A DNA stretch of 20,000 nucleotides from Mayamaea pseudoterrestris (Eukaryota): positions 185,490 through 205,489 of the forward strand of contig BROI01000037.1 of NCBI GenBank assembly GCA_027923505.1, written 5' to 3'. Below, piece after piece: positions 471 to 20,000 of this stretch (position 1 is the stretch's first letter; each line of letters starts with the position of its first letter). A model generated the notes under the pieces. The model was not told the origin of the DNA, did no database searches, and was given only the letters and a program-made list of their open reading frames with translations. A program made the translations under genes and the position numbers.

Positions 471-1607
471 TTATCTATCGTTGCCGCAGTCATATAAACT
501 ATTGAGTCGCTGTAGCACGCCACCAAACATGTTCTCATCTAGTTCATGCACAAGATGTAACAAGGAGTCTCGGGTTGTTGGGTCGTGACTGCTCGCATGT
601 CCTCCTGCATTGACTTCCGGTTGCTGAGGAATTGTATAATACTCGTGACCACCTGGATATAAAAAGTCCATCGTTTGTCCAAATATATTGAGCTGTTTAC
701 TGGCGTTGGTGATGTCCTCAAAGCAGACTAATAGCGTTCTGTCCACGGGGTCCACCTGTCTGCGTTGCTCCAATTCCACGAGATATCCCTCAATGGATAA
801 GTAATACGCTCGCAAGGCCACGTGGATGTAGACGCGCATGCCCACATCCGCGTCTTCATCTGCTAAATAGTGACACATTGATCGATTAAGGCCAGGCGGA
901 TAGGCAAATTGAATATCACGTGTGTACCTTTCCCAATCCATGTTTCGTTGACGCTTCTCTGGCACGGGTTCGCCGTAGGCGCTGAGCCAACACTCATGTC
1001 CCGACTGGTGATACAAGTAGCCGGATACAATAGCATCAAACATGTTGCGGAGAAGGACAACTTGCCGGTAGTCCTTTAGTGATGTACTGTTTGCCTTGGG
1101 CATCCTTTTAGGAGTGATATGAGTGCTCGTAATATTTGGGGCAAAGGAACCGTAAAGCTTTTCGGACAAGATAAACCCGAATTTGTGGTTACGTCTGGGA
1201 TTGTGAAGCAGTTTGAATGAGGCTCAATAGCTTCCTTTTTAGTACATGGATCTGGCAATTGGCACTTACAAAATTTGGCGTTGGCAGCAATTTCGATCCA
1301 TGTGAAAGCAGGAACAATTCTCGTCTATTACCATTACCAATGGAGCCAGCTCCTCACTATGACTCTCTACAAATATATCTCGGTTAGTATTTAGAAGGAC
1401 TATCAGCGTGACAGCCGTCGTTCCAAAAAATAACAACCATGACAAAGAGGTGCGTGGCTGAAACATTGAATTTTGAAAAATTGGAATTGTTTGCTGGGAA
1501 TGCTCATCACTTGATTCACAGTCAAGTAAACAATGCTCATCCAAGCCTTCATTGTCATCAGTATTATCAAAAATTTGCTCGTCTGCATAGAGTTCTTTCA
1601 TTGCCAT
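471..1607 (-). CDS. Type II membrane sulfotransferase-like protein; two exons complement(join(471..1194,1270..1607)), about 353 aa
   Basis: ORFs 1266..1607 and 471..1169 join in frame across a GTAAGT...CCCAG intron, giving ...RQILRNHKFGFILSEKL... There is an N-terminal TM segment (WLLFFGTTAVTLIVLL), HKFG resembles the 5'-PSB motif, VVLLRNMFDAIVSGYLYH resembles the 3'-PB motif, and LLVCFEDI resembles RYEDL. Confidence 0.7.
1195..1269 (-). other. 75-bp spliceosomal intron
   Basis: Minus-strand donor GTAAGT at 1269 and acceptor CTTCACAATCCCAG ending at 1195. Splicing removes the in-frame TAA and restores one long ORF. Confidence 0.8.
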
Positions 1608-1981: not shown

Positions 1982-3502
1982 ATGGAAGCAAGAACACGAA
2001 CGCCAATCGGGCCTCTCATCGTCAAATCTGCCTCCATGATCGTCGCAGCTGGGTGCGCTTGGTACTTCTACCAACGTAAAGGTTCCATTTGCTACAACCA
2101 GTCGCGCCAAAGGCGCAAACAAAATCATCAAGAAGATTCCATCACGTCGGCTTACGAATCACTGATTGGAGACACGCCCATGATTGAGCTGCAGCACTTG
2201 TCGCGCTTGCTCAAGCGACGAATATTCGTCAAACTGGAACACTTGAATCCAGGAGGGACGGGCAAGGATCGAGCCGCCCGCAGCATGATTTTGGCAGCGG
2301 AACGACAAGGTGCCTTGCCGGTATATGAAGCGAGTCATGAACTGGACGATGTGTCTGGCACGAGGTTTTGCATATCAACAACTGTGACGAGCACGGCAGC
2401 GCGTTGTAATCCATTGCAAGGCGACAATCAACCTGAAACGAGTAATGTAATAAATGCGTCTATCAGTATTAAAGATGCTTCATCAGTTTTCATGGACAAA
2501 ACTATGGACGCTGCAATTCAAAAAGCAGTGGCATATATGCCAACGTCGATTACAAAATGCGGCATGATTGTGGAAGGAACGTCGGGATCCACTGGAATAT
2601 CGTTGGCTGCACTGGCCCGCTGTCGCAACCACGCCTGCATTGTCGTCTTGCCAGACGACCAAGCTTCCGAGAAACGAGTCGTTTTGGAAGCCTTAAGTGC
2701 CGTCGTGTTGGTGGTGCCGACGCACAGCATTTCGCATCCGCACCATTACGTGAATGTGGCACGGAAGCTTGCCGAGCGAGCGCGACTAAAATACAAGCTT
2801 CAGGCGGTGTTCATGGATCAGTTTGACAACTTGGCCAATTTCCAGGTACATTATGATGAGACTGGACCGGAAGTGTGGGAGCAGTGTCAGCGAAATATAC
2901 AAGCTGTTTGTCTTTCCGCAGGAACGGGAGGTACGATTGCCGGCGTTGGCCAATATTTGAAGCAAGCATGTCCATCCATTCGCATTGTTTTGGTGGATCC
3001 GCCGGGGAGCTCGCTGTATCACAAGATTGTGCATGGAGTTTGCTTTGCGCCCCAGCAGTCTGAAAGAACATTGCAGCGACATAGATACGATACCTTGGCG
3101 GAAGGAATTGGACTGGACCGTGTCACGCGCAACCTACAAGCCGGCTTGGATGCGATTGACAGTGCCATTCAGGTATCCGATCAGGAGGCTTTGGACATGG
3201 CGCATTGGTTGCTGCGAAAGGAAGGTTTGTGGGTGGGTTCGAGCTCGGCCATGAATGTTGTAGGAGCCGTCCGCACTGCCATGGAGTTGCCGGAAGCGTC
3301 CAAGATTGTCACATTTGTTTGTGATTCCGGTCAACGGCATGTTACTCGATTCTGGAACCGAGATTTCGTTATAAGCCGAGGATTGGAGTGGCCAGGAGAT
3401 GTTTCATCTCCGTTAGAGTCATCTCTAGAAAGGTTGTCTGACTGCTTACGTGAGGCTTTGGTAAATGACAAGAGAATAAGTACGCTAGAGGACAACCAAT
3501 AA
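1982..3502 (+). CDS. Cysteine synthase-like PLP-dependent enzyme (fold type II), with an N-terminal hydrophobic anchor and an internal insertion
   Basis: Motifs IGDTPMIEL, VKLEHLNPGGTGKDRAA (PLP lysine), EGTSGSTGISLA, DQFDNLAN, AGTGGT, DTLAEGIG, EGLWVGSSSAMN and CDSGQRH. Resembles the fungal cysteine synthase 2/MCY1 type. Confidence 0.9.
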   Translation: MEARTRTPIGPLIVKSASMIVAAGCAWYFYQRKGSICYNQSRQRRKQNHQEDSITSAYESLIGDTPMIELQHLSRLLKRRIFVKLEHLNPGGTGKDRAARSMILAAERQGALPVYEASHELDDVSGTRFCISTTVTSTAARCNPLQGDNQPETSNVINASISIKDASSVFMDKTMDAAIQKAVAYMPTSITKCGMIVEGTSGSTGISLAALARCRNHACIVVLPDDQASEKRVVLEALSAVVLVVPTHSISHPHHYVNVARKLAERARLKYKLQAVFMDQFDNLANFQVHYDETGPEVWEQCQRNIQAVCLSAGTGGTIAGVGQYLKQACPSIRIVLVDPPGSSLYHKIVHGVCFAPQQSERTLQRHRYDTLAEGIGLDRVTRNLQAGLDAIDSAIQVSDQEALDMAHWLLRKEGLWVGSSSAMNVVGAVRTAMELPEASKIVTFVCDSGQRHVTRFWNRDFVISRGLEWPGDVSSPLESSLERLSDCLREALVNDKRISTLEDNQ

Positions 3503-3574
3503 GTTGTCTTAGTGTTTTGTTTACTGGTATAGGGTAAATGGCTGCTACCACCATATGGCGAAGTTGCACGCATC

Positions 3575-3579
3575 AAGCT
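3575..3579 (+). repeat. Left target-site duplication AAGCT (partner at 10451-10455)
   Basis: catc-AAGCT-TGTCA on the left and TGACA-AAGCT-gcctc on the right. Confidence 0.95.
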
Positions 3580-3933
3580 TGTCAGCCGATTACATGATTG
3601 AATACTCGAATGCTCTTGTCGCATGCGACATGAGCTATACATCAATACCTGGCTCGTGTGTGAATCGCCTGTTAATTAAGGACGATCGCCTGTTGGATCT
3701 ATTCAACGGGAGCACATGGACAGTTACATACAAAATTAGCGGACGCTACAGGATTAGCAGACTGTAGCGGGTAACTCACTTTCTATAGTATCACGTTGTT
3801 TTACCGACGTTGTAGATTGTGCCTCTTGCAATACGAGAGCAGTAAAGGAGAAGTGCACATCTCTGGTCTGCTTAAGGATTGTACAGAGGATTGAAGACCA
3901 CTGTCGAGCATCTTGCAAAGAGGCCGTGTGACA
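3580..3933 (+). repeat. 5' LTR of element 1 (354 bp)
   Basis: Direct repeat of 10097-10450 with no difference seen by eye; terminal inverted repeat TGTCA/TGACA. Confidence 0.97.
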
Positions 3934-3949
3934 GATCAACAGTCTTGGT
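3934..3949 (+). promoter_or_regulatory. Putative primer binding site of element 1 (non-canonical, GATCAACAGTCTTGGT)
   Basis: Lies immediately 3' of the 5' LTR. A near-identical GATCACACAGTCTTGGT follows the LTR end of element 2 (14711-14727). Confidence 0.7.
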
Positions 3950-4117
3950 TGTACCCTGCAAAGTGAAGCTTTGGACGCAAGGCATCACCTTCCTTCCCTC
4001 AAAACTTCTTCGCAGTCGACGAGAGCAGCAACTCTCGAGGCAGCATAAAGCAGAAGCACCTTAAAGTAAAGGGGTCTGCGATCGGATCGACTTGCAAGCG
4101 TTCCATAAACTGCAAAG

Positions 4118-6646
4118 ATGGCTCCAAGTACACGGAGCAACTTCCTCAAGATGGGCTTGTCGGCAATGATGAATCTGGCCGACGATGCAACGTATGACGC
4201 TCATAGCATCGTCACGACTCTCCAGTCGATCGGTGTAAATGATCGCGAGTCCCTCATGCTCGTTACCGATGCTGATATCAAGGGTCTCCATTTCTCGCCG
4301 CCAGAGGAGAACATGGTTCTTCGCATCAAGAAGTGGGCGGTCGGCAAGGATAAAGCAGCCGACTGGGCGACTCTGACGATCGACAAGCTTATCAGCGAAA
4401 CAAGCGATAGCGTGGCGACTCCATCGGCGACAAGCACGAGTCGTTCCTTCGAGAGCCGAATCAAAGTTGATATGAACGCGTATAAGGAGCTCAAGGACGA
4501 CAGTCGCTTCCGCGTATGGAATCGAGAGACGCTGATGGCAGCGTATATGCATGGACTCTCCGACATCTTCGACGAGAAGGTTGTCGCTCCGACTGACGCA
4601 GATGGCTTGAAGGAATGGAACTTAAAGCAGAGCGTCGTCATGAGCATCTTCGTTAACACCTTGAAGACGGCGAAATCGCTGCAGATCCTCCGCAAGCACT
4701 TAAACAATCGAACGGCAAAGGCGTGCTATCAGGAGCTAGTCACCGAGTATTGCAAAGGAACGTTCGGAAAGATCCAAGTGCGTAAGGCAGAGAAAACGTT
4801 GCGCGACTTCAAGTTCGATGAATCCAAGTCCCATATGAGCTTCGTTACTGGCTGGCTGAACAAGCTCAAGGATTATGAAGAGATCAAGGATGCGCCCGCG
4901 TCTGATGGAGACAAGCTCGAGTGGTTTACCGACGCGCTGCAAGCAAGCGACGCGCTCCGTGCTGTTATTGATACAACCACCGTGCAAGATCAGCGTGATG
5001 GCAAAGATACCGACTTCAACACCCTGATTACGCTCGTCTCGAGCATGGCGATCTCCAAGGACTCGTATGCTTCGATTACCAAGAGCAAGCTTAAAGCGAA
5101 TCAAGCTGAAACTGGAACTCCAAGCGCTAAGAAGAGCGGCGGCGGCGGTGGTCGTGGCGCCGGGCGTGGAGGAGCTGGTCGAGGCATGCAGAATCCCGGC
5201 CGCGGCACTGGTCGTGGCGGAGGCCGAGGCCAAGGCGGACAGCAGCGTCAAGCGAATGAAGCAGCAAGCAGTACAGCTCAGTTGCCTGCGGTATCGTCTG
5301 AAGTATGGGCGACCATGGACCAAGCAGCTCGAGCGCCGTACATCCGTCAAGCTCGTGAGCGTCGTCAGCAGCGCACTCATCAAGCGGCAAACCAGGCGCA
5401 GTCAAGCGGCGGCAACGGCAATCCGAACATTGCGACCATTCAGTTCGTTAATGAACCAAACCATTCGACGGCAATGTCGGCTGTTACGCAGCAGACTCAG
5501 CCTCCGCAGCAGCAGCAACCCGCGCAGCAGCAGCGAGGATACGCCGCGCGTCAATTCCTTTCGAACGACCAAGCATCGGTTGCTCAATCCAGTCAGCAGT
5601 CGCAGCAACCGGAGCATACCATCATGATGGGGAATCAGCGTTATCACATGTACCGTGCGAACGCTTGTCGGCTCAAGTATCGCATCAGTCGCTCGAGCGT
5701 GGGCGCTGATGACTCGTTGATTGATCGAGGCGCAAACGGCGGCCTCTGGGGATCCGAGGGTCGTGTACTTGACGTATCAACCTTCCACACCGTCGATATT
5801 ACTGGTATTGACAAGCATGTGAAGAAGGGCGTGCCACTTGGAATGGTGGCCGGAAAGATTGTCAGCGTGGAGGGTGAGCAAATCATCGCCATCTTCAACA
5901 ATTACGCCATTGGAGGCAGCGGAGCGACGATTCACGCAGCCATTCAGCTCGAGGACTTTGGACATGAGGTCTTTGATAAGGTATCAGGCGTTGGAGGACT
6001 GCAGTTAATGAAGCTCTCTGATGGAACCATTGTCCCCTTTAGCGTGGTTAATGGATTGGTCCAACTCGCGATGGCTAATTTTACCGACGACGAATTTAAT
6101 AGCCTCCGCTACGTTATGATGACGTTGGATGCTCCCTGGGATCCGTCAAAGTACGACAATGTGCTTGATGAGCAGGTTGCGAAGGACGCTGCAGAGTCGC
6201 TCGACCATGACGCTTCAACCATTGTGATGAGCAACGTCTCTAACCCCGGTCGACCAAACGATTTGCAGTCGTATCTCGAGTCTTTATCCTGCCCTTTGAG
6301 CAACTACGACCGCACGTCGTATACATTGTCCGAAGCGGATCATTCTATCGCTGGAAACGGAGTGGGCGCGACTCATTCAAGTGGACAGCTGCAAGTTGAT
6401 TCTTCTGTCGTCGACAGCAATCAAGTCAATAACACGGAGACTGAACTCGACGCGGACGACGATAGCGTTCCTCCATTGGTCGCGCGCGATGCAAACGATG
6501 ATTCTACCGCTGGCGGGTCCCGCGGCGACGACGAGTCAATCGCTAGCCACGGCAGCAACGACAGCGACGAATGGTTTGACGCTGAGGAAGATCTATTTTT
6601 CGAGTATGGGGAGACAATGAACAAGTCTTCTCTACGCATGATTTAA
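4118..6646 (+). CDS. Gag plus aspartic protease part of the element 1 polyprotein
   Basis: Copia-type Gag core (FRVWNRETL...HGLSDIFD...WNLKQSVVMSIF), an RG-rich/Q-rich segment, protease motif LIDRGANGG (DRG at 5723-5731), then an acidic spacer. Confidence 0.88.
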   Translation: MAPSTRSNFLKMGLSAMMNLADDATYDAHSIVTTLQSIGVNDRESLMLVTDADIKGLHFSPPEENMVLRIKKWAVGKDKAADWATLTIDKLISETSDSVATPSATSTSRSFESRIKVDMNAYKELKDDSRFRVWNRETLMAAYMHGLSDIFDEKVVAPTDADGLKEWNLKQSVVMSIFVNTLKTAKSLQILRKHLNNRTAKACYQELVTEYCKGTFGKIQVRKAEKTLRDFKFDESKSHMSFVTGWLNKLKDYEEIKDAPASDGDKLEWFTDALQASDALRAVIDTTTVQDQRDGKDTDFNTLITLVSSMAISKDSYASITKSKLKANQAETGTPSAKKSGGGGGRGAGRGGAGRGMQNPGRGTGRGGGRGQGGQQRQANEAASSTAQLPAVSSEVWATMDQAARAPYIRQARERRQQRTHQAANQAQSSGGNGNPNIATIQFVNEPNHSTAMSAVTQQTQPPQQQQPAQQQRGYAARQFLSNDQASVAQSSQQSQQPEHTIMMGNQRYHMYRANACRLKYRISRSSVGADDSLIDRGANGGLWGSEGRVLDVSTFHTVDITGIDKHVKKGVPLGMVAGKIVSVEGEQIIAIFNNYAIGGSGATIHAAIQLEDFGHEVFDKVSGVGGLQLMKLSDGTIVPFSVVNGLVQLAMANFTDDEFNSLRYVMMTLDAPWDPSKYDNVLDEQVAKDAAESLDHDASTIVMSNVSNPGRPNDLQSYLESLSCPLSNYDRTSYTLSEADHSIAGNGVGATHSSGQLQVDSSVVDSNQVNNTETELDADDDSVPPLVARDANDDSTAGGSRGDDESIASHGSNDSDEWFDAEEDLFFEYGETMNKSSLRMI

Positions 6647-8425
6647 ACGTTTACCAGGCAACGATGGAAGCTGGCAACACGACGGCATACATCAATCTTG
6701 CCGCTCGTCCTGCTCGATCCATCTTGCCTGCTCGCCCCGACTACGACGCTTTGCGCCCGTACTTCGCGTGGATTCCAATCAATCGTATCAAGGAAACTCT
6801 AAAGAATACAACGCAGTTTTATCGTGCGGAGAACCGTCATCCTATGCGGCGCCATTATCGGACGCGTTTCCCTGGAGCCAACGTTAATCGTCTGGCGGAG
6901 ACGGTCGCTACCGACACCATTTTCTCTGATGTGCCTGCTATTGACGACGGTATTCCCGGTCATGGAGGTTGCACGATGGCACAACTGTACGTTGGTCTTG
7001 AGAGTCGATTGATTGAGGTATACCCCATGCGGAGCAAAGGACAGTTGCCGAGCACGTTGATGAAATTCATAAGCGAACGAGGCGCTCCACTCGAGCTCTT
7101 CTCTGACTGCGCTAAGGAAGCTTGCAGCAAGGAAGTTGAGGAAATCCTTCGTATGATGATGATTCGGCGTCATAAACGCAGCAAGCCATACCAACAGAAC
7201 CAAGATCCCGCGGAGCGCGCCATTGGCGACGTCGAGCGCCAAGTGAATGTCGTCATGGATCGTACTGGGACACCAGCTCCATTCTGGTTGCTTTGTACGC
7301 TGTACATTGCGAGTCTCTTTTGCGTTCTTTCCCAAGCTTCTTTACAAGGGAAGACTGCCTTTCAGCATACTACTGGCCAAGTCCCAGACATTTCGCCCTA
7401 CTTGAATTACCATTGGTGGGAGCGCGTCTCTTTCCTTGACGACAATCCCGACAAGATGACTGATAGCATGCAACGCGCTGGTCGTTTTGTTGGCGTTGCA
7501 AAGGATGTGGGCGACCATTTAACTTATTGGATCCTTGATGAGGAGACGATGAAGGTCATTCCTCGGTCTGTTGTTGCAAAGCGCGACGATCCTGCAAACC
7601 CCAATCTCCGGCTCGATACGCCGACTGTTTCTGCTACTGCAGATGGGGAGGCATTCGTTTACACGCAAGACGGCATCATTGAAGCGTTTAACTTGAGTGA
7701 TAAAGACGAAGAGTCTCCAGTAACAGACAGCGGCGAGCGCTCCCCGGGTGAAACCGTCGCGAGCGACGAGTCGAGAAATCCTTTGAGCAATCCTAATCGT
7801 CCTCAAACTCGCTCACAAACTAAAGCAAATCCTTCTCCAAGCAATCGTCCCAAGTTGCCTTACTTTTCACCTGAAGATTTGATTGATCGGTCCTTTCTAT
7901 ACGACGCTCCAAACGGGCAACGCCTTCGAGCCGTCGTCAAACGCAAGCTAGACACGTTGGACGCTCAGAATCATCAAAACATTAAGTTCATTTTGCATCT
8001 TGGTAAAGAAGAAGCGGAGGAGGTGATTGATTACGTTAAATTGAACGACATCTTCGAGGCTCTTGTGCTGGATGAGGTAGCTAACCCTCAAGCGTGGCCG
8101 ACTTACAAAGAAATCCTTTCCCACGCTGGTCCGTACACAAACCGGTCCCCTGAGTGGCGTGGAAGCAAGTTTAACGTGTTGGTATTATGGGACGATGGCG
8201 AGGACATGAATCAATTTGGCAAAGATGATCCCGTAGCTGCGCCGACTATGCTCGAGACCATGGGCTGCTTGAGACGGATGGATGGAAGTTTCTGCAGAAG
8301 CATGCGCGGGAGACAAGCTCCTTACGCAAGATCAAAGCAGCGAAGTCAGCTCAATCAAAACGCGGTCCACGCTACAAGTTTGACGTCCGTATCCCTCGCG
8401 ACTGGCGTGAAGCTCGTTCCTTTTC
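6586..8425 (+). CDS. Integrase and C-terminal chromodomain-like region of element 1 (frame open from 6586; frameshift at about 8236)
   Basis: DDE core: VATDTIFSD...LFSDCAKE...QNQDPAERAI. SH3-like RAGRFVGVAKDVGDHLTYWI. After 8238 the shifted frame reads CADYARDHGLLETDGWKFL...PRYKFDVRIPRDWREA. Confidence 0.85.
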
Positions 8426-10090
8426 AAGGAAGCTGGCCATACCAAGTGGACTGATGCGGAGCAAGTTGAAATTGACAATCTATTTGAGTACGATACGTTT
8501 AAAGACCTCGGTAAAGGCGACAAGCAACCGAAGGGGCATCAAAAGATCCGCACCATTTGGGTCTACGATTGCAAACATGACTTTCGCCATCGAGCAAGGA
8601 TGGTGGCTGGAGGGCACTTGACGCCCGAGGCAGACGATGCTTACTCGAGCGTCGTATCATTGGAGATTATGCGCTACGCGTTGGTGATTGGAGAGCTGAA
8701 TGGACTCAAGCCCATGGTCGGCGACATCGGCAATGCGTATCTCGAGGCGTACACTAAAGAGAAAGTTTATTTCGTCGCTGGTCCTGAGTTCGGCCATCTT
8801 GAAGGGCATTCCCTGCTCATTGTCAAAGCTCTATACGGTCTGCGAACTAGCGGAGCTCGTTTCCATGAGCGTCTAGCCGATGCTCTGCGTGACGAAGGAT
8901 TCAAACCTTCGCTGGCGGATCCCGACCTGTGGTTGCGAGACACTGGCGATTGCTACGAGTATATATGCGTCTGGGTTGACGACTTGCTTGCCATTCTGAA
9001 GGATCCAGAGGCGTTTTACGAGGCGCTGCGCAGCAAGTATCAGTTCAAATTGAAAGGCGTCGGGCAACCCGAGTATCATCTTGGAGGCAACTTCGGTCGC
9101 GATCCTGATGGTACGCTCTATTGGGGAGCTCGCACGTACGTTGAAAAGCTTCTCGGCAATTACGAGCGCATGTTTGGCGGTCCTCCAAAGAAGTATTCTT
9201 CGCCGCTCGACAAGGACGACCATCCTGAGTTGGATCAGTCGCCATTACTGCGCGCTGATGGAGTCAAGATGTATCAATCGCTCGTCGGAGCGCTGCAGTG
9301 GGCAATTACTTTGGCACGATTCGATATCGCATGCGGAGTTGCTTGCTTATCTCGCTTTCGAGCGGAGCCTCGTGAGGGGCATCTTGATCGAGTCAAGCGC
9401 GTTTGTGGCTACTTGCGTAATCATCCTGACGCTGCGATTCGCTTCCGAGTTAACTGGCCTGAAAACGAGGCAATCTTTGGAGAGCAACCCGAGTTTGATT
9501 GGATGTATAGCGTCTACGGGGAGCCCGCGGAGGATGAGCTTGCTTTATATCCTCCACCAAAGGGAAGAATGGTGCGTCTGACGACATGGAAAGACGCCAA
9601 TTTAATGCACTGCAAAGTAACTGGCAAATCTTGCAGCGGCATTCTTCATTTCATTAACCAAACGCCCGTCAAGTGGTTCTCCAAGTTACAAGATACAGTG
9701 GAGGCGGCAACGTTTGGATCTGAGTCAATGAGTGGACGCATTGCTACCGACCATATCATCGGGATGCGCGCGTCGCTCAAGGCGATGGGTGTGCCTATAG
9801 AGAAGACCAGCTGGATGCTTGGAGACAACCAGTCGGTAATCACTCAAAGCACAATCCCTAGCTCAACACTTACAAAGCGTCACAATGCTCTGGCCTACCA
9901 TCGGATTCGCTGGGCGGTGGCGACTAAGGTAATCAAGTTCGTCAAGGTCGACGGTAAGGAAAACGTCGCAGACCCTCTGACCAAGTACATGAATTACACT
10001 GAGTCAATGCCTTTGATCAAGCCTCTGTTATTCTGGAGAGGAGAGACTTTGATTGAAGGAGATTTGGGAGCTGGCAGCCGATCTGCTTAA
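8426..10090 (+). CDS. Reverse transcriptase plus RNase H of element 1
   Basis: KWTDAEQVEIDNL...WVYDCKHDFRHRARMVAGGH, GDIGNAYL, KALYGLRTSG, WVDDLL; RNase H KDANL...TFGSE...LGDNQ...NVADPLTK. The frame is open upstream of the ORF-track ATG at 8600. Confidence 0.93.
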   Translation, partial: KEAGHTKWTDAEQVEIDNLFEYDTFKDLGKGDKQPKGHQKIRTIWVYDCKHDFRHRARMVAGGHLTPEADDAYSSVVSLEIMRYALVIGELNGLKPMVGDIGNAYLEAYTKEKVYFVAGPEFGHLEGHSLLIVKALYGLRTSGARFHERLADALRDEGFKPSLADPDLWLRDTGDCYEYICVWVDDLLAILKDPEAFYEALRSKYQFKLKGVGQPEYHLGGNFGRDPDGTLYWGARTYVEKLLGNYERMFGGPPKKYSSPLDKDDHPELDQSPLLRADGVKMYQSLVGALQWAITLARFDIACGVACLSRFRAEPREGHLDRVKRVCGYLRNHPDAAIRFRVNWPENEAIFGEQPEFDWMYSVYGEPAEDELALYPPPKGRMVRLTTWKDANLMHCKVTGKSCSGILHFINQTPVKWFSKLQDTVEAATFGSESMSGRIATDHIIGMRASLKAMGVPIEKTSWMLGDNQSVITQSTIPSSTLTKRHNALAYHRIRWAVATKVIKFVKVDGKENVADPLTKYMNYTESMPLIKPLLFWRGETLIEGDLGAGSRSA

Positions 10091-10096
10091 GCGGAG
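10089..10096 (+). promoter_or_regulatory. Putative short polypurine tract AAGCGGAG
   Basis: Purine-rich 8-mer abutting the 3' LTR and overlapping the pol stop codon. Confidence 0.55.
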
Positions 10097-10450
10097 TGTC
10101 AGCCGATTACATGATTGAATACTCGAATGCTCTTGTCGCATGCGACATGAGCTATACATCAATACCTGGCTCGTGTGTGAATCGCCTGTTAATTAAGGAC
10201 GATCGCCTGTTGGATCTATTCAACGGGAGCACATGGACAGTTACATACAAAATTAGCGGACGCTACAGGATTAGCAGACTGTAGCGGGTAACTCACTTTC
10301 TATAGTATCACGTTGTTTTACCGACGTTGTAGATTGTGCCTCTTGCAATACGAGAGCAGTAAAGGAGAAGTGCACATCTCTGGTCTGCTTAAGGATTGTA
10401 CAGAGGATTGAAGACCACTGTCGAGCATCTTGCAAAGAGGCCGTGTGACA
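10097..10450 (+). repeat. 3' LTR of element 1 (354 bp)
   Basis: Direct repeat of 3580-3933, preceded by a short purine-rich tract and followed by TSD AAGCT. Confidence 0.97.
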
Positions 10451-13124
10451 AAGCTGCCTCCAACGCGCTCATAACGGCAGCCTTCTTCTCGTCCTCCGAA
10501 GCATACTCTCGTGACAGCAAGTCCTTCAAATTGATCTGACGCAAACGCTTTACAAATGCAGTGTCAGCCGCGACAGACTCGGCTTGATCATGATCGTCGA
10601 CGGCGTAGCCGCTATTGACAACGCTGCTGGGACTGCTTTCCGACGACTGCCGTTTCTTTGTGTATTGAAAATTCTCCAACTCTTTCGCCTTAATTTTAGC
10701 GTCTTCAATCACCACAGAAGGTACGTTGGCCATTTTAGCAACTTGAATGCCAAAGCTTTCAAGGCACGGACCTGGTTTGACTTCGTAAAGAAAGGTCAAG
10801 CCATGATCACCCTTCTTCGCAGTAACATGATAGTTCTTGACAACATGCTTACAATCTTCGAGTGCCGTCAGCTCGTGAAAGTGTGTCGTAAACACCGTCA
10901 TGCAGCCAATCGTGTCGACTATGTATTCACTAATCGCTCGCGCCAAACCATATCCGTCGAAAGTTGACGTTCCTCGTCCAAGCTCATCAATCATGATCAA
11001 ACTTCGCTTGGTCGCGCGACGTAAAATAGATGACGACTCAAGCATTTCAGCCATAAAGGTGCTGATTCCGCGTTCCTGCAAGTCACCCGCACCAACGCGG
11101 GCCAAAATGTCGTGGCAAATGTTCATTTTGGCAGATGCGCACGGCACATACGCGCCAACTTGTGCGAGCGCAACAATGGCACCGAGCGAGCGAATATAGA
11201 CGGATTTTCCGCCCATATTTGGTCCTGTAATGAGCAGAAAGGACTGCTCACCGTATACAAGGCGAATGTCGTTGGGGATAAAGTCGACGCCGTCCTGGAG
11301 CTCGACGCACGGGTGGCGGGCCGCTTTCAAAACAATGCCAGTTCCGTCGTCCTCATTGTCCGTCAATTCCGGTCGAACGTAGTTACTGTATGCTGCAATA
11401 TGGGAAAAGCCAACAATAACATCCAAAGTCGCGACCAGTTGACTGGCATGAGACAGCACGTCGACATAGCTGGCCGCCGCCTGCATGGCTTGCATGGCTA
11501 GTTGGCGCTGGTACTTGTCATACTCATTTTTCAAATCTTGCTTGCGACTTGCTAGTCCACGAAGTTCCTTGGTTGTAAAGTAGACTCCATTCTTCAAGAT
11601 TCGCGAAACCTGGACGCGAATCTGCGTCGTTGCCTCGAGCAGCTTCAAGTCATTGGCATCGGCGAGTCGAAACTGAAACTCACCATCATTCGAGTTTCGG
11701 TCCAACTTGACGGCGTTTCGCTTTCCCGAAATGTTTGCCCAGGTTTCGTTCATTTGCTCCAAGCATTCCTGCACCTGCGTTTCCAATTCATTCAGCTCGT
11801 CATACACTTGCTCCAGCTCCGGCTTGTAGCCGGGTCGAAGTCGATATTCGCGGGGAGCAGCGTCCAAGTCAACAACATCTTCGGCTAGCTGACTCGCAAG
11901 AACCAAATCTTGTTCACACTGCTCAAGGCCATGCAGCAGCGTTACGAGCAGACTGGGCGGCACAGCAGTTTCATCGTTGTGAGAATGATGTAACGTCGAC
12001 GGATCGTCCGATAATGCCACTTGCAAGCGATCCCGGAGCAATGGAACTCGTTGTGATGCCACTAGCCAAAGTTTGTACATGGCCTGCAGCGCCTTGGTCG
12101 TTGGCCCCAACGGCATGCTCGCGCCAATGTCATTGACGCTTCCATCATGCACTGACGACGCCGCATCACTATCAATCTCATCATCAATACTAGTATACAT
12201 TTCCAGCTGCTTGGCCAAGCCATCCAGATCAATGGCAGCAAATCCCGCCAAACCTTCCTGTTTGAGTGCATCGCGCGCAATGTTTCGCTGCAGCAACCAC
12301 GCCACCGCCTCCTGTCGCTCCAGTATTTGCTCCAACTGCACCAGCGGCTGCTGCAACCACGTGGCCAGTCGCAGCTTGCCCACGTGCGTCTGCAGTGGCT
12401 GTCTCAACAATCCAAAGAGACTCGCGTTGCTCGCGCTGCTGAAAGCTCCCACTTGATCGGCAATGTGCGACGGCGGCCATAAATGAATGGCTTCGCACGC
12501 CGTCTTGTCGAGTGACAGAAACGACGGCAGTTTGCCCACGTCAATCTCCAGCGCCAGTGACGACTGCTCCGTTTGCGTCGCGCTGAAATAGAATTCGAGA
12601 CTAGTCGAAAGGTGCGTCGTTTCCGACGAGTGCAGCAAGGATGACAAATCGGAGTGCGCGCCAACGGAGAGGGCGGCTTGGCGCGACAAGCGATGCGCCA
12701 AGGTTTGCGACAAGTTGCATTTGCTTTTGGGTAGTGTTTCGTGGAAGCGAATCGTCACGTCGAGAGCAGGTGGTCCGTCGATGGCTTGCATGCTGTCATT
12801 GTTTTCGTCATTGTCTTGCGATTGCGTAACGAGTATTTGCTGCAACACTTGCTCGAGCGCTCCCAACGCTCGCTGCTTGACTTGCTTCTCGGCTGCAACG
12901 TGAATGCATGAAACGTCAAAATCTGCTTGCTGCAACAGTGCCTGAAGATGAGTGTAGGCCGCTGGATGATCAATGAAGGAGTAGCATCGCAAGGACTGCG
13001 TGGACGAATTCACTGCGGAATCACATTCGCGCCAAAGCGTCAGCTGGACGGCATGGGCGCAGTTTGGATCGGTCATTCCCGATAAGGACTTGTAGCGGGA
13101 GACGTAGAGTGTAACTGCTGTCAT
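10389..13124 (-). CDS. MSH2: DNA mismatch repair protein MSH2, with a 20-aa LTR-derived C-terminal extension
   Basis: TGPNMGGKS Walker A, RVGAGDLQERGISTFMAEMLE, IDELGRGTSTFDGYGLARAISEYI, THFHELT, SFGIQVA and KNGVYFTT all match the MSH2 subfamily. The likely start is the ATG at 13124 (alternative 13202). The stop TAA lies inside the LTR. Confidence 0.93.
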   Translation of the reverse strand: MTAVTLYVSRYKSLSGMTDPNCAHAVQLTLWRECDSAVNSSTQSLRCYSFIDHPAAYTHLQALLQQADFDVSCIHVAAEKQVKQRALGALEQVLQQILVTQSQDNDENNDSMQAIDGPPALDVTIRFHETLPKSKCNLSQTLAHRLSRQAALSVGAHSDLSSLLHSSETTHLSTSLEFYFSATQTEQSSLALEIDVGKLPSFLSLDKTACEAIHLWPPSHIADQVGAFSSASNASLFGLLRQPLQTHVGKLRLATWLQQPLVQLEQILERQEAVAWLLQRNIARDALKQEGLAGFAAIDLDGLAKQLEMYTSIDDEIDSDAASSVHDGSVNDIGASMPLGPTTKALQAMYKLWLVASQRVPLLRDRLQVALSDDPSTLHHSHNDETAVPPSLLVTLLHGLEQCEQDLVLASQLAEDVVDLDAAPREYRLRPGYKPELEQVYDELNELETQVQECLEQMNETWANISGKRNAVKLDRNSNDGEFQFRLADANDLKLLEATTQIRVQVSRILKNGVYFTTKELRGLASRKQDLKNEYDKYQRQLAMQAMQAAASYVDVLSHASQLVATLDVIVGFSHIAAYSNYVRPELTDNEDDGTGIVLKAARHPCVELQDGVDFIPNDIRLVYGEQSFLLITGPNMGGKSVYIRSLGAIVALAQVGAYVPCASAKMNICHDILARVGAGDLQERGISTFMAEMLESSSILRRATKRSLIMIDELGRGTSTFDGYGLARAISEYIVDTIGCMTVFTTHFHELTALEDCKHVVKNYHVTAKKGDHGLTFLYEVKPGPCLESFGIQVAKMANVPSVVIEDAKIKAKELENFQYTKKRQSSESSPSSVVNSGYAVDDHDQAESVAADTAFVKRLRQINLKDLLSREYASEDEKKAAVMSALEAALSHGLFARCSTVVFNPLYNP

Positions 13125-13592
13125 GATGATGAAGTTGGTACAGACAAAATGGAGGTGCAAGGATGCTAACTGTGGCTCGCAGTTTTTGCATTCTTGCATC
13201 ATTGCATTGGATGAGGCGAATGAACGGAAACCGCTACGACAGCTTCAGCTATCGCGACATTATTACCCTCCTCCTATCCACTACTATCATTCACCGCATC
13301 GCTCCCAGCCACCCGACTGGCATGAGTCTCTTTGTACGTTGAACTGTTTGTCTCGAGTGTCTGCTGTAGTACTGTACAGTACCTTGGGGCGGGCTTTTGA
13401 ACCATCAGAATATTCGCTTGCTTTTACATCAATCATTCTACGATAGACTTTTCAAACCTTTTGCCGTTGCATTCCAACGTGAATCACGTCTTTTCAAGTC
13501 CGACCCCGGCCTCTCGGTGCTTTGCTGTGCGCTTGTTTTTGTTTTGCCTAACTGTAACTTTCATCAAAATAAAATCATCAAGGTACTTCACC

Positions 13593-14951: not shown

Positions 14952-17900
14952 ATGACCGTCGTCGAAGATGATCCTCCCGACGGACCCAATGTCACGCAAG
15001 ATGACGCGGAAGACAACTCGCTCGCCGTCGGATTGAAAAGCATGTACAAGCAGAAGACCGTCAACAACGACAAGTTCATGAAGCTTCCAGTCATCGTCGC
15101 CATCAAGTCACTCCTCCCGGACGGACGTCTACTCACGGAGCCATTCCTAATGCTGACCATCAAGGACATCGAGTCGGTACTGAAGGAATCCAAAACGCAC
15201 ATCACGGTTATTCGAACCATCACCCCTCGTCAATGGGCACGGAAGAGCGCGAACTCAAGGAATGGGCGACGCTCGTCGCAGGACTCATCAAAGCGACCGA
15301 ATCGCCCGAAGAGTCTCTATTCCAAAGCGACATGAGTCGGATTCAACCGAGTCAGCCACGGACGTTCCCGGAAGTCCGAGGCCGAGAAGTACAAATCTCG
15401 CGTCCGAGTAGACACCAAAGCATACAACGAGTTCAAAGACGAGTACAAATTCTGTCAATGGTGGCTCAAAATGTTCACAACGGCCAGAACCAAGGCATCG
15501 AGCGAGTCTTCGATCCGGATTTCAACCGACAACGCCGCTCGAAGATCTCGAGGTATTCAAAGCGCAAGAAGCCACAGCATTCGACATCATCACTTCATAC
15601 TGCAAAGTCGCCAACTGCATCCCGATCATTCGCTGCCACAAGGACGGGTCGGCCCACAGTGATTATAGGAAATGCACACGATGTAATTGGACGGGCAAGA
15701 ACGCCGAACGCGCAGCGCAGCGAGTCAAGAGTTCCGCGACATGAAACTGACGAACGACCACGGCAGTACGTACACTCGTGGTTCACTCAATGGGAGAATG
15801 CCTTGCTCGATACGAAGATTATACTGGCGAAACAGTCCCCGACGCGACGCGCAAGAAGTGGTTGTCCGAATCGGTTCGCTGGAATGACGCCCTTTCGCCA
15901 AGAAATTCGGCGAGTCGTATCCTCAACGCGCAAGGTCAAGATCAAAGCTTCGAAGACTGGTACAAGCAGCTCATCGAGTTCGGCTCGCGATACCGACGAC
16001 GTCAAAGCGACACGCCAAACGCCAAATGAAGATCCACCAATCCATCCAACAAGCGAGTACTACTGACCGGAGGCACTACACCGACTAGCGGCAACACTCA
16101 AAGCAGCAGCCACGGCGGAAACGGTCGTGGAAATGGCAGCGGACGTGGAACGGTCGCGGTTCTGGACGCGGTGAAAGCGCGGCCGAGGTAACCGGACGAG
16201 GTGGTGGACACGGACAGTGCACCAATCCTTCTGCAGCATCGAACCGTCGAGTCGAGCCGGATGTATGGTTCTCTTGGACGGAGGAGCAACGCGAAGCTCA
16301 TAAGGCAGAAACTCCCGAATCCGGGAAGCGGAACGTGCGCGCCTGCAGCTGAACGCCAAGCCCAAGCCAGCACGAACAACACTAATACACCACCAACTCC
16401 ACAAATTCAGCTTCCACCGGCGAGTACGACGGCGATGTCAGCCATGTCGGCGATTACTCAGCCTACAGTCGAACTACACCAGCACGTGGAACCGCCATGC
16501 GCGCGTTTCAGTCTCAGCAACAAGGCTCGATCGCTCAAGGAAGCCAGCCATCTACTCCACCAGTGTATCAAGCACGAGTTGGCGACGTTACATACAACAT
16601 GTATCGATGCCAACGCAACTAACGTCACGCGTCGTTCTACAAACCTATGCGCTACACATAACGTTATCCTACGCAGATGCGCTTTATGGGTATGAATACT
16701 CCGGCAACCGAAGGGCCACACACGTCACAGTTCCATGTCACTGGTCCATTACGTCCCGAAGCCCGTCCATGATGGATCGCGGTGCCAACGGTTCGTCGCT
16801 GGAGGAGATGATTTGCTTGGATCGTCGACGACCAGTTTGCAGACGTTACCGGAATTGACAATCACATGGCAAGGACTACCCCGGAACATTCGCCGCCAAG
16901 ATCTGGACGACGGAAGGGTACGTCATTGGCATTTTCTACCAGTACGCCGACGGAGGAACCGACGCAACCATTCCTCGGTCGTTCAGCTCGAGGACTTCGG
17001 AAACAAGGTATTCGAGCAAGGCAAGCGCACTTGGCGGACGGCAGCTCATGTACACCCGAAGGAGCATTGATCCCATTCACGGTCCAGAACGGTTTGGTCC
17101 ATTTGAAGATGCATCATTTCACCGACGCCCGAGTTCGACACGTTGCCGCACGTCGTCATGACAGCAGACACGCCTTGGGATCCGTCAATCGATGGAGACC
17201 TTAATGACAGTCGATCCAAGCGGAAATTGAAACCACGCGACGGACGATCACGGCGCCAACACTACTAGTCAACAACACCAAGTCAACGGAAACGCGCAAG
17301 ACGAATATCCCGAAGACCTTTCAGTCAAAACACTCAACGTCGTCTCATGGAACGGATTCCGAAACCCACGAATGGGAGCACTTCAGCGACGAGTCGGACC
17401 CTATACAAGTCGAAACCGGGTCCATCCGAGCGCGTTGAGCCGACATTGTACCCGACGACGCTTCTTACAACACGAACCCACAACAGGACGACATTTCACT
17501 ACCCTCACTACTTTCACGCGGAACCATATCGACATCCGGATCAAGCCATGCTCCGAATCCCAACGACGCAACGTTCGAATCTGAAGACATTGCCGGGAAA
17601 TGCGATCCGTACGAGCTGCAGGTCAATGCCGCAATTGTAGAAGCTGGAGGCAATCCATATTCTGGACTAGCCGGCCGACCAGCGCACGCTGTGGTTCCTA
17701 CGCGACCAGATTACCAAATGCTCCGTCCCAACTTGATTTCTACCCACCGATCCGTATCAAAGAGACTCTCAAGAACACTACCCAATTCTATCACGCCGAG
17801 CAACGTTTTCCTCAGCGACGCCATTTGCGTACTTCGTTTCCCGGTGCGAATGTTTCCGACTACCTGAAGAAGTTGCAATGGACACACTATTCTCCGACAC

Positions 17901-20000
17901 ACCCGCACTCAACGATGGTATTCCTGGACATGCCGGATGCCAAGCAGCGCAACTATACGTTTGCATGCAGAGCCGATTGATTCGCGTCTGCCGATGGCGA
18001 ACAAGGGACAAGTTCCGTCGACGCTCATGCAGTTTATCAACGATTGCGGTGCTCCACCGGTCTAATATCAGACGGAGCCAAGGAAGAAAACAGCCTGGCG
18101 AGCGAATCGAACGCCAGTTTATGATCCGTAAGCACTGGGTCAGCGAACCGGAAAACCAACAGCAGAATCCAGCGGAACGCGTTATCGGCGACGTCGGCGC
18201 GCACTGTCAATGTCAACATGGATCGAACCGGATCGCCTGCACCAACCTGGCTGCTATGCACTCTACATCGTAGCTCTGCTCGCCCTCATGTCCCGGTCAC
18301 GTCTTCTGGTGGCATGACCCCATATCAAAAGGTATATAATGAAGTACCCAATATCTCTGCCTACCTCAACTACCACTGGTGGCAGCCCGTTCGATACAGC
18401 GCAAACTCTACATCGCTCAACCAAACCAATGAGCGCGCTGGACGCTCGTCGGGTAGCTGATAACGTCGGTGATGCTCTAACGCTACTGGGTCTTGGACGA
18501 GGAAACACATCAAGTTGTCGCCCAAAGCATTGTAACGCTCGTCGAGACGATCTTAATCCAAACATCCGTCTTGATTTACCAAGTCGAAGCTTCTCCCGAA
18601 GCGCGTGTTAGTATACCCGAAGGTGGAACTCAAGAGAGCTTCCAACTCGGCACCCAAAGCTCCGAAGAAGAGGGGCTACCCACTGATGAACCCGTTCCTA
18701 CTGAAACGGCGACGACGGACCCAGTTCGCCCGGAGATGAACCATTCGTCGGAGCAGTCCCACCAGCGGCCGCCATCAGCCCGTCCTCAAGCGCATCCACG
18801 CGGACCAATCGATTACTACCTGCATTCTCACCTGAAGAACTTTACAATAAGCGTTTACTCGGCATACTCAGGATGGGTGGCTCCATGGAGCGGCGAATGG
18901 TTCACAAGCTCGAAACCATGGACGCAGCCAACCATCATAACATCAAGTTCCTACTCCAATCGGCGAAAACGAAGCTGAAGAAGTCATCGATTACATCCGA
19001 CTCTGCGAATTGTTCGAAAAGGACCAAGCAGCAAAGGTAAGCGATCCTGAACACAACTGGACGTTTAAAGCAATCCTATGATCTAAGGGCCACTCGCCAG
19101 CAATCCAACGGATGGAAAGGCTCCATGTATAACATCAAAGTCGTGTGGGAAGAGCACCAACTCGCGACTTGGGAGCCTTTGAACGCTGCTTAGCGACGAC
19201 ATCATTTCCTGCGCACTACGCCCGGCGAACGGTGGGTCACTACTCAACAAGAAAGGCTGGAAGTTCCTACTTGACGCAGCCCGACGCGCACGTAGTCGCC
19301 CGTCGAACCGTAAAGCCAACGACGCAGCACCCGTGCACGTTCGGCGTCAGGTACCACGATCCAAAGGGCTTCGAAAGTTCCAAGAAGAACTCCGGCATAC
19401 CAAATGGACCGACGCGGAGAAGGTAGAGCTGTCAAGCCTGTTCGATCACGACACCTTCATTGATCTCGGATTGAATGCCGCGCCTCCCGAAGGCTATCAA
19501 AAGATTCGCACTATCTGGGTCTGCGACTGCAAGCAAGACTTTCGTTCACAAGGCTCGGATGGTTGCGGTGGACACCTTACTGATCCTGTCGACGACTCAT
19601 ACTCGAAGCGTCGTTTCACTGGAATCGCTGCGCCTAGCGCTGGCGATAGGGAGTTGAATGGACTCACTCCCATGGTAGCGACATCGAAATGCTTACCTCG
19701 AAGCAAAACCAAGAAAAGATTTACTTCATCGCTGGACCTGAGTTCGGCGACTTGGAAAACCACACACTCATCATCTACAAAGCACTCTACGGCTCCGCAG
19801 AACAAGGCACGATTCCCGACCGCTCTGAAAACGGAAGGCTTCAAAGCCTGTCGCCCGATCACGTTTGGATTCGTGCTGGCCATTCTTGAATACTTTCACT
19901 GTCACCGACGCCTGCTAATGATTGCCCGGGCGCATTCTACGACATTCTTCGCAACAAGTACAAGTTCAAGCTCAAACGTCGGATGCCCAGAGTACCATCT
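14952..20000 (+). pseudogene. Fragmented gag-pol of element 2
   Basis: Homology to element 1 switches frame repeatedly and no long ORF remains. This could be decay or uncorrected long-read error. Confidence 0.7.

Follow-up and report, generated by a model that had tools for sequence, protein, structure and literature searches.

A young Ty1/copia-type retrotransposon in the stop codon of an MSH2-like gene of Mayamaea pseudoterrestris

In a window of 20,000 nucleotides from Mayamaea pseudoterrestris (assembly GCA_027923505.1, contig BROI01000037.1, positions 185,490 to 205,489 of the forward strand; the window is this whole stretch, and all coordinates below refer to it), a long terminal repeat (LTR) retrotransposon of 6,871 bp (3580-10450, plus strand) is inserted in the stop codon of a minus-strand gene for an MSH2-like MutS homologue. 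The first-pass annotation of this DNA had placed the element exactly within the MSH2 stop codon, and the junction sequence, the identical LTRs and a duplicated AAGCT pentamer bear this out. We consider it likely that we are dealing with a tolerated young Ty1/copia insertion of the diatom kind, carried on one haplotype or polymorphic, which turned the gene into a stop-loss allele whose tail was set by chance. According to the mechanism that we propose, a young diatom-type Ty1/copia element would have integrated into a 70-bp spacer between two convergent genes, by way of a 5-bp staggered cut that would have included the first base of the MSH2-like TGA. The product would be a stop-loss allele that retains all 917 native codons, and its translation, if it occurs, would continue through 20 antisense-LTR codons up to the first in-frame stop. 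The insertion would persist because it occupies the least damaging position in the coding region and because an uninterrupted version of the locus exists.

Junctions, native end and new tail of the MSH2-like gene

On the plus strand, the pentamer AAGCT stands on both sides of the element as a 5-bp duplication, a match that chance would produce in about 1 of 1024 cases. Read on the gene strand the pentamer is AGCTT, and the TGA begins with its final T; since the duplicated pentamer ends with this base, the insertion cut through the stop codon itself. At the gene-proximal junction the minus strand from 10475 to 10389 reads ...GTT ATG AGC GCG TTG GAG GCA GCT TTG TCA CAC ... CCT TAA, in which the local copy of the T and the first two LTR bases form the TTG codon. 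The distal copy of the T is still part of a TGA 6.9 kb away: at the far junction the minus strand reads ...GGCTGACA up to the border of the element and AGCTT GA beyond it, the TGA occupying 3575..3573, which confirms the earlier statement that the native stop survives on the other side of the insertion (3573-3575). When 3580-10450 and one pentamer were removed by script, translation of the product ended in ...KKAAVMSALEAA followed by the stop, so that the predicted restoration of ...ALEAA and a stop codon was reproduced. Finally, the motif with which the LTR starts occurs twice in the window, against 0 occurrences expected by chance.

The assignment of the interrupted gene to MSH2 also held, in the form of an MSH2-like protein. 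Pfam recognised MutS_V (1e-72), MutS_III (1e-15) and MutS_IV (2e-5) in it, and both Walker motifs are visible in the alignment with its homologues. A sequence search of solved structures gave human MSH2 as the best match (1e-107), followed by bacterial MutS (1e-57), MSH3 (1e-53) and MSH6 (1e-48); this comparison covered MSH2, MutS, MSH3 and MSH6, with MSH4, MSH5 and MSH1 being absent from the matches. An AlphaFold model built from a 7-sequence alignment (mean predicted local distance difference test score of 58, with the ATPase domain and the tail below 50) was applied only to the question of domain I discussed further below; in the fold comparison with this low-confidence model, the top 21 matches were all MSH2 chains (Z 18.9-22.8).

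The five closest database relatives, which were aligned with the window protein, share 43-57% identity with it, and four of them end no more than a few residues from the reconstructed stop (P0002 with ...ALELSV, P0003 with ...LIASHP, P0004 with ...EYKSSQ and P0006 with ...LLLAQ); the fifth, P0005, breaks off earlier, within the ATPase domain. That four of five homologues end near the TGA at 3573-3575 marks this codon as the native stop and means that no native residue was lost, and thus the claim of zero lost residues is upheld by the excision product and by the homologues alike. The native end displays a helix-like pattern that is common to the relatives, as judged from the alignment and from a helix predicted at 903-918. 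The alignment with human MSH2 ends at human residue 865 (query residue 856), and the final 61 native residues bear no similarity to the human MSH2 tail and are specific to the lineage. Human MSH2 has a C-terminal interaction region, on which a literature search found no paper, and because the native tail is unlike the human one, data on this region are not simply transferable.

In the filled allele, the native stop is lost in frame and the open reading frame (ORF) runs on into the inserted sequence, as in a stop-loss allele. It appends the 20 residues LSHGLFARCSTVVFNPLYNP before TAA at 10389-10391, and the minus-strand reading agrees with the earlier attribution of both tail and new stop to the antisense LTR; the predicted tryptic peptide across the junction of the filled allele is AAVMSALEAALSHGLFAR. 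When the LTR was shuffled 20,000 times, the open stretch had a mean length of 18.3 codons (median 13), with 35% of the shuffled sequences staying open for at least 20; the other two antisense frames of the LTR would give 59 and 43 codons. A length of 20 codons is therefore ordinary for random sequence, and because it matches the random expectation, the tail is a by-product of the insertion. In the low-confidence AlphaFold model the extension is coil and the predicted helix at 903-918 lies ahead of it. The grand average of hydropathy (GRAVY) of the tail is +0.39, compared to -0.38 for the last 60 native residues and -0.17 for the whole protein. The native 3' flank of the gene is displaced by 6.9 kb, and a scan for poly(A)-signal hexamers returned weak variants only, namely AATAGA at 10220, past the new stop, and AGTAAA at 3525 in the native flank. 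Among the papers listed by a search on LTR insertions that give C-terminal extensions, titles and abstracts revealed no case of a stop codon hit by an LTR element, which is no proof of absence from print; a search on readthrough extensions of MSH2 led to a paper on a nonsense mutation that is irrelevant here.

The insertion has the two direct LTRs with TG and CA ends and the short target-site duplication of a Ty1/copia element, and the reverse transcriptase encoded within it is of the copia type by its Pfam match (RVT_2 in ORF 3, E 6e-21, 75.6 bits versus a cutoff of 31.6). As the two LTRs are identical at 354 of 354 positions, the insertion is young, in support of the earlier view of a very recent event as far as the youth of the element is concerned. 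An integrase region upstream of the reverse transcriptase is indicated by ORF 2, which is similar to a stretch of the polyprotein P0165 that spans a weak rve match (residues 334-396, 26.1 bits versus a cutoff of 32.6), itself located upstream of the RVT_2 domain of P0165 (814-1026). Judged from these similarities, the gene order is that of Ty1/copia.

Filled and empty sites in independent runs and the competing explanations

Five sequencing runs from two studies contain part of the gene stretch, zero of them recorded as RNA, and four (X1 to X4) were compared with the window over 3000-11500. All run sequences are Logan contigs, not reads, and the kind of library is not specified for the runs. 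A comparison of empty and filled sites had been suggested along with the original claim, and the contigs provide both a filled right junction and a join that resembles the empty site. The former is found in X3, where record 21 covers 10321-10678 in 358 nt, of which 130 belong to the LTR and 228 to the gene, with 4 differences from the window; as this contig crosses the right junction, the filled junction exists outside the assembly of the window, and because the second study also has a run with the filled junction, the insertion is not the private event of one culture. The latter comes from record 9 of X2, a contig of 439 nt. One of its aligned parts covers 3173-3517 (345 nt, 33 differences, 4 gaps) and the other resumes at 10451, so that 6933 nt are skipped. 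Such a join is consistent with an empty site on a diverged haplotype, a homeologue or another strain, although it does not define that site to the base. In X4, record 31 ends 2 letters past 10451 and is uninformative on filled versus empty.

X3 contains the gene in two versions over 10649-10797, one with 0 and the other with 13 differences in 149 nt (records 22 and 23, of equal length and similar depth), and this coding divergence of ~9% suggests very divergent haplotypes or two subgenomes. The comparison with the runs also showed differences at 10950, 10959, 10962, 11196, 11199 and 11250, which can serve to tell alleles of the gene apart. On the whole, the insertion is most likely present on one haplotype only, or polymorphic, and a normal copy probably coexists alongside the filled allele. 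If an uninterrupted copy coexists, a recessive loss of function would be masked. We infer that within a single cell line the insertion would be confined to one haplotype and tolerated, and that the output of the allele may be lowered by its hydrophobic tail or by the loss of the 3' flank.

Several observations weigh against this interpretation. The run sequences being contigs instead of reads, zygosity within one individual is not demonstrable from them. The empty-site-like record of X2 extends only 38 nt into the gene side, leaves ~54 letters between its two parts unplaced, and could stem from a homeologous locus or another strain. The left junction (3579/3580) is not bridged by any contig among the records listed, so that of the misassembly check that had been called for at both junctions, the right one (10450/10451) is bridged, by record 21 of X3, and the left one is not. 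Moreover, in the ~200 nt beside the junction the window and the contigs of X3 and X4 disagree at 4 positions, which is a poor fit with LTRs that show zero differences if it reflects real divergence on the filled allele; haplotype switching in the contigs or in the assembly may explain these differences. Lastly, the higher hydrophobicity of the tail, compared with the native end, makes an effect on protein level possible.

This last point leads to the alternative that the filled allele is hypomorphic or a mutator, in which the hydrophobic tail and/or the lost 3' flank would cut the level or the partnering of MSH2 and raise the mutation rate. The hydropathy of the tail given above speaks for it, as do the position of the tail directly behind a terminal helix (predicted at 903-918) whose pattern is common to the homologues, and the removal of the native 3' flank by 6.9 kb. 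In animals, proteins with hydrophobic C-terminal readthrough or nonstop extensions are reported to be cleared (PMC10364623, PMC11502859). An effect on the output of the filled allele would accordingly be plausible, by way of the hydrophobic tail, the lost 3' flank and a 3' LTR that points into the gene. But an empty-site-like contig and a second version of the gene occur under the same organism label, so that a loss of function would probably be masked; the ORF is otherwise intact and retains its ATPase motifs; the extreme C-terminus shows little conservation of length or sequence across the homologues and is unlike that of human MSH2; and the filled junction recurs in a run of the second study, which means that carriers persist. 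For these reasons we hold a mutator allele to be unlikely and, on the evidence of the contigs, neither the putative exonisation nor a mutator effect is likely to matter phenotypically.

The geometry of the locus raises a regulatory alternative, in which LTR read-out or read-through would produce antisense RNA over MSH2 and repair would dip whenever the element is induced, for example by stress. The element lies on the plus strand with the minus-strand gene directly downstream of its 3' LTR, and since this LTR abuts the end of the gene and points into it, antisense read-out is conceivable. In plants, LTR read-out is known to silence neighbouring genes. Nitrate limitation induces Blackbeard, a copia element of a diatom (PMC2806351). 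On the other hand, the pol of the window copy is frame-broken, although this has little bearing on the promoter activity of an LTR, and there is no sign of selection for the arrangement, so that we judge such a side effect very improbable. The same low standing is given to a combination of the two, a conditional mutator in which an MSH2 allele weakened by its tail and its lost 3' flank would be further affected by induced LTR antisense RNA, coupling transposon activation to a transient drop in mismatch repair. An assembly artefact, that is a repeat-induced chimeric join that placed the element beside the gene, could draw on the unbridged left junction and on a cluster of small length differences in which the window departs from every run contig (the contigs of all four runs have 17 extra letters spread over eight places in 8203-8426), perhaps the result of local assembly errors. 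Yet a perfect 5-bp duplication surrounds perfect LTR ends, excision puts the stop exactly at the point where the homologues end, and the independent X3 contig bridges the right junction with its 130 and 228 nt on either side; an artefact is thus extremely unlikely, and a tolerated young insertion remains the explanation that we favour.

Features of the element, the gene and their surroundings

The element, the MSH2-like gene and the features around their junctions are compiled in Table 1.

Table 1. Position and strand of the features of the insertion locus, in coordinates of the window
Feature	Position	Strand	Details
Cysteine-synthase-like (PALP) gene, convergent	1982..3502	+	TAA 70 nt from native MSH2 TGA, 77 nt from LTR
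Orphaned native TGA of MSH2-like gene	3573..3575	-	T inside left target-duplication copy; in-silico excision gives ...ALEAA and stop
Target-site duplication AAGCT, left copy	3575..3579		flanks element
5' LTR, 354 bp, TGTCAG...GTGACA	3580..3933	+	354/354 identical to 10097-10450
Element ORF 1, 842 aa, frame 2, presumed gag + protease region	4118..6646	+	RGG/Q-rich low-complexity stretch
Element ORF 2, frame 1, integrase-like region	6586..8454	+	45% identity to P0165 residues 211-754, E 2e-154
Pol reading-frame break (frame 1, then 3, then 2)	8235..8432	+	tblastn of P0160 against window
Element ORF 3, frame 2, reverse transcriptase + RNase H region	8411..10090	+	Pfam RVT_2; 77% identity to 2137-aa polyprotein P0160
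3' LTR	10097..10450	+	antisense strand gives new C-terminal codons, stop and new 3' flank of MSH2-like gene
LTR-derived extension, 20 codons (LSHGLFARCSTVVFNPLYNP) + TAA	10389..10451	-	first codon TTG = duplication T + TG of LTR end; X3 contig covers 10321-10678
Target-site duplication AAGCT, right copy	10451..10455		flanks element
MSH2-like MutS homologue, unbroken 937-codon ORF	10389..13202	-	MutS domains III, IV and V; Walker A GPNMGGKS, Walker B DELGRGT; Pfam, structure search, fold comparison, alignment

In the element ORFs, Pfam reported no gag, protease or integrase family, ORF 2 being without an rve match, and the stretch 4109-6646 matched no Pfam family and was similar only to the polyproteins of relatives, such as P0160, whose residues 479-719 match 5534-6241 at 44% identity by tblastn. 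Around 5130-5229 the presumed gag (ORF 1) has low-complexity sequence that is RGG-rich and Q-rich and contains an internal imperfect repeat of 40 nt; Pfam reported no zinc-knuckle domain in ORF 1. The reverse transcriptase ORF has 1704 relatives at E <= 0.001 among 7079 candidate proteins, and among the 120 matches listed many are single polyproteins (~1800-2100 aa) encoded on contigs of 6.5-8 kb; P0160 (77%) is the best of those listed. By contrast to the single polyprotein of these relatives, gag-pol is interrupted in the window copy, which has three ORFs in frames 2, 1 and 2 and follows the frame order 2, 1, 3, 2, with the final two shifts within 8235-8432. A further length difference affects the G-run at 6609-6612, which has four G in the window and one more in part of the X1 and X2 contigs. 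From its sequence, the copy would be either pol-defective or locally misassembled, its class and its junctions being unaffected in both cases. Run contigs of the LTR show 0 differences and a depth much above that of the flanks (records 1 and 16); in X1, the depth is ~1010 for the LTR contig versus 81-102 for the flank contigs, and while depth is no copy number, these depths hint at a multi-copy element family.

The mismatch-binding domain I of the MSH2-like protein was not detected by any of the comparisons. Pfam found neither MutS_I nor MutS_II in the window protein, and neither is among the precomputed Pfam domains of its five closest homologues; the fold alignments, made with the low-confidence model, begin at about residue 145 of human MSH2; tblastn of a fungal MSH2 against the window gave no match to its first 308 residues; and no upstream exon for MutS domain I was found within 13.2-15.4 kb. 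The MSH2 of this lineage may lack domain I, or alternatively the domain may be too diverged or encoded elsewhere, in an exon beyond the window. The part of the protein in which domains I and II are undetected is its N-terminal part, at 12000-13244 on the minus strand.

The cysteine-synthase-like gene that converges on the MSH2-like gene has 1082 matches, and the only named close ones are from the diatoms Nitzschia inconspicua (56%) and Cylindrotheca closterium (48%). Before the insertion the convergent stop codons of the two genes were 70 nt apart, and given this gap the insertion point lies right at the margin of a very small intergenic spacer. Moreover, a distance of 70 nt left room only for overlapping or very short 3' untranslated regions of the two genes. 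The 3' flank of the cysteine-synthase-like gene is altered by the insertion too, as the LTR starts 77 nt past its stop. A second copia-like element, far more decayed, extends over 15372-19976 (plus strand) and continues to the window's end. Its similarity to P0160 (27-47% identity) is broken into at least 8 pieces, with the reading frame changing repeatedly, and the ORFs in this region have no Pfam matches. The MSH2-like gene is thus flanked by one young and one old copia insertion. Near the opposite end of the window, an ORF of 232 aa at 471-1169 (minus strand) has a weak sulfotransferase-domain match below the Pfam cutoff (E 0.004, 16.9 versus 22 bits).

Significance and comparison with known systems

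The locus offers a clean case, resolved to the base, of a retrotransposon insertion in a coding region that can survive because it lies in the stop codon, with no residue lost and a tail set by chance, and it adds to the picture of diatom genomes as carrying insertions that are absent from some copies of a locus. It also provides a natural experiment, in which a core repair gene can be examined with and without the insertion within one species, to see whether the two alleles differ in expression, in the stability of the protein or in the mutation rate. If the filled allele did lower mismatch repair, transposon bursts would be linked to the mutation rate in ecologically important algae.

Insertions of this kind have already been described in diatoms, by Maumus et al. 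2009 (PMC2806351). There, the Ty1/copia elements of Phaeodactylum tricornutum (CoDi, for example Blackbeard) have TG and CA ends, an example of a 5-bp duplication and near-identical LTRs, and many of their insertions are present on one haplotype only. The element described here resembles these insertions in its copia type, its TG/CA LTR ends, its short duplication, its near-identical LTRs and its diatom-like host, a likeness that holds at the level of the copia type and does not place the element in a named CoDi group. It further resembles them in that one haplotype would be filled and the other intact, a similarity that rests here on contigs and not on PCR. Unlike in the Phaeodactylum cases presented there, the element has hit a DNA-repair gene in its stop codon, so that the coding sequence is extended.

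A second parallel is with the nonstop-extension alleles known from cancer and from the quality control of readthrough proteins (PMC11502859, PMC10364623), with which the filled allele shares the in-frame loss of the stop, the run into non-coding sequence and the hydrophobic tail. Unlike those alleles, it owes its origin to a 6.9-kb insertion and not to a point mutation, and both its tail and its entire 3' flank are transposon sequence, the native 3' untranslated region having been removed as well.

For human MSH2 itself, a deletion of 3' exon sequence of TACSTD1/EPCAM, reportedly described by Ligtenberg and colleagues in 2009, is said to silence the gene in cis, by upstream read-through into its promoter. 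As in that case, the rearrangement in the window lies beside MSH2, leaves the coding residues untouched and could change expression by aberrant transcription across the gene; unlike the human deletion, which acts from upstream, the change is at the 3' end, and its effect on expression is hypothetical.

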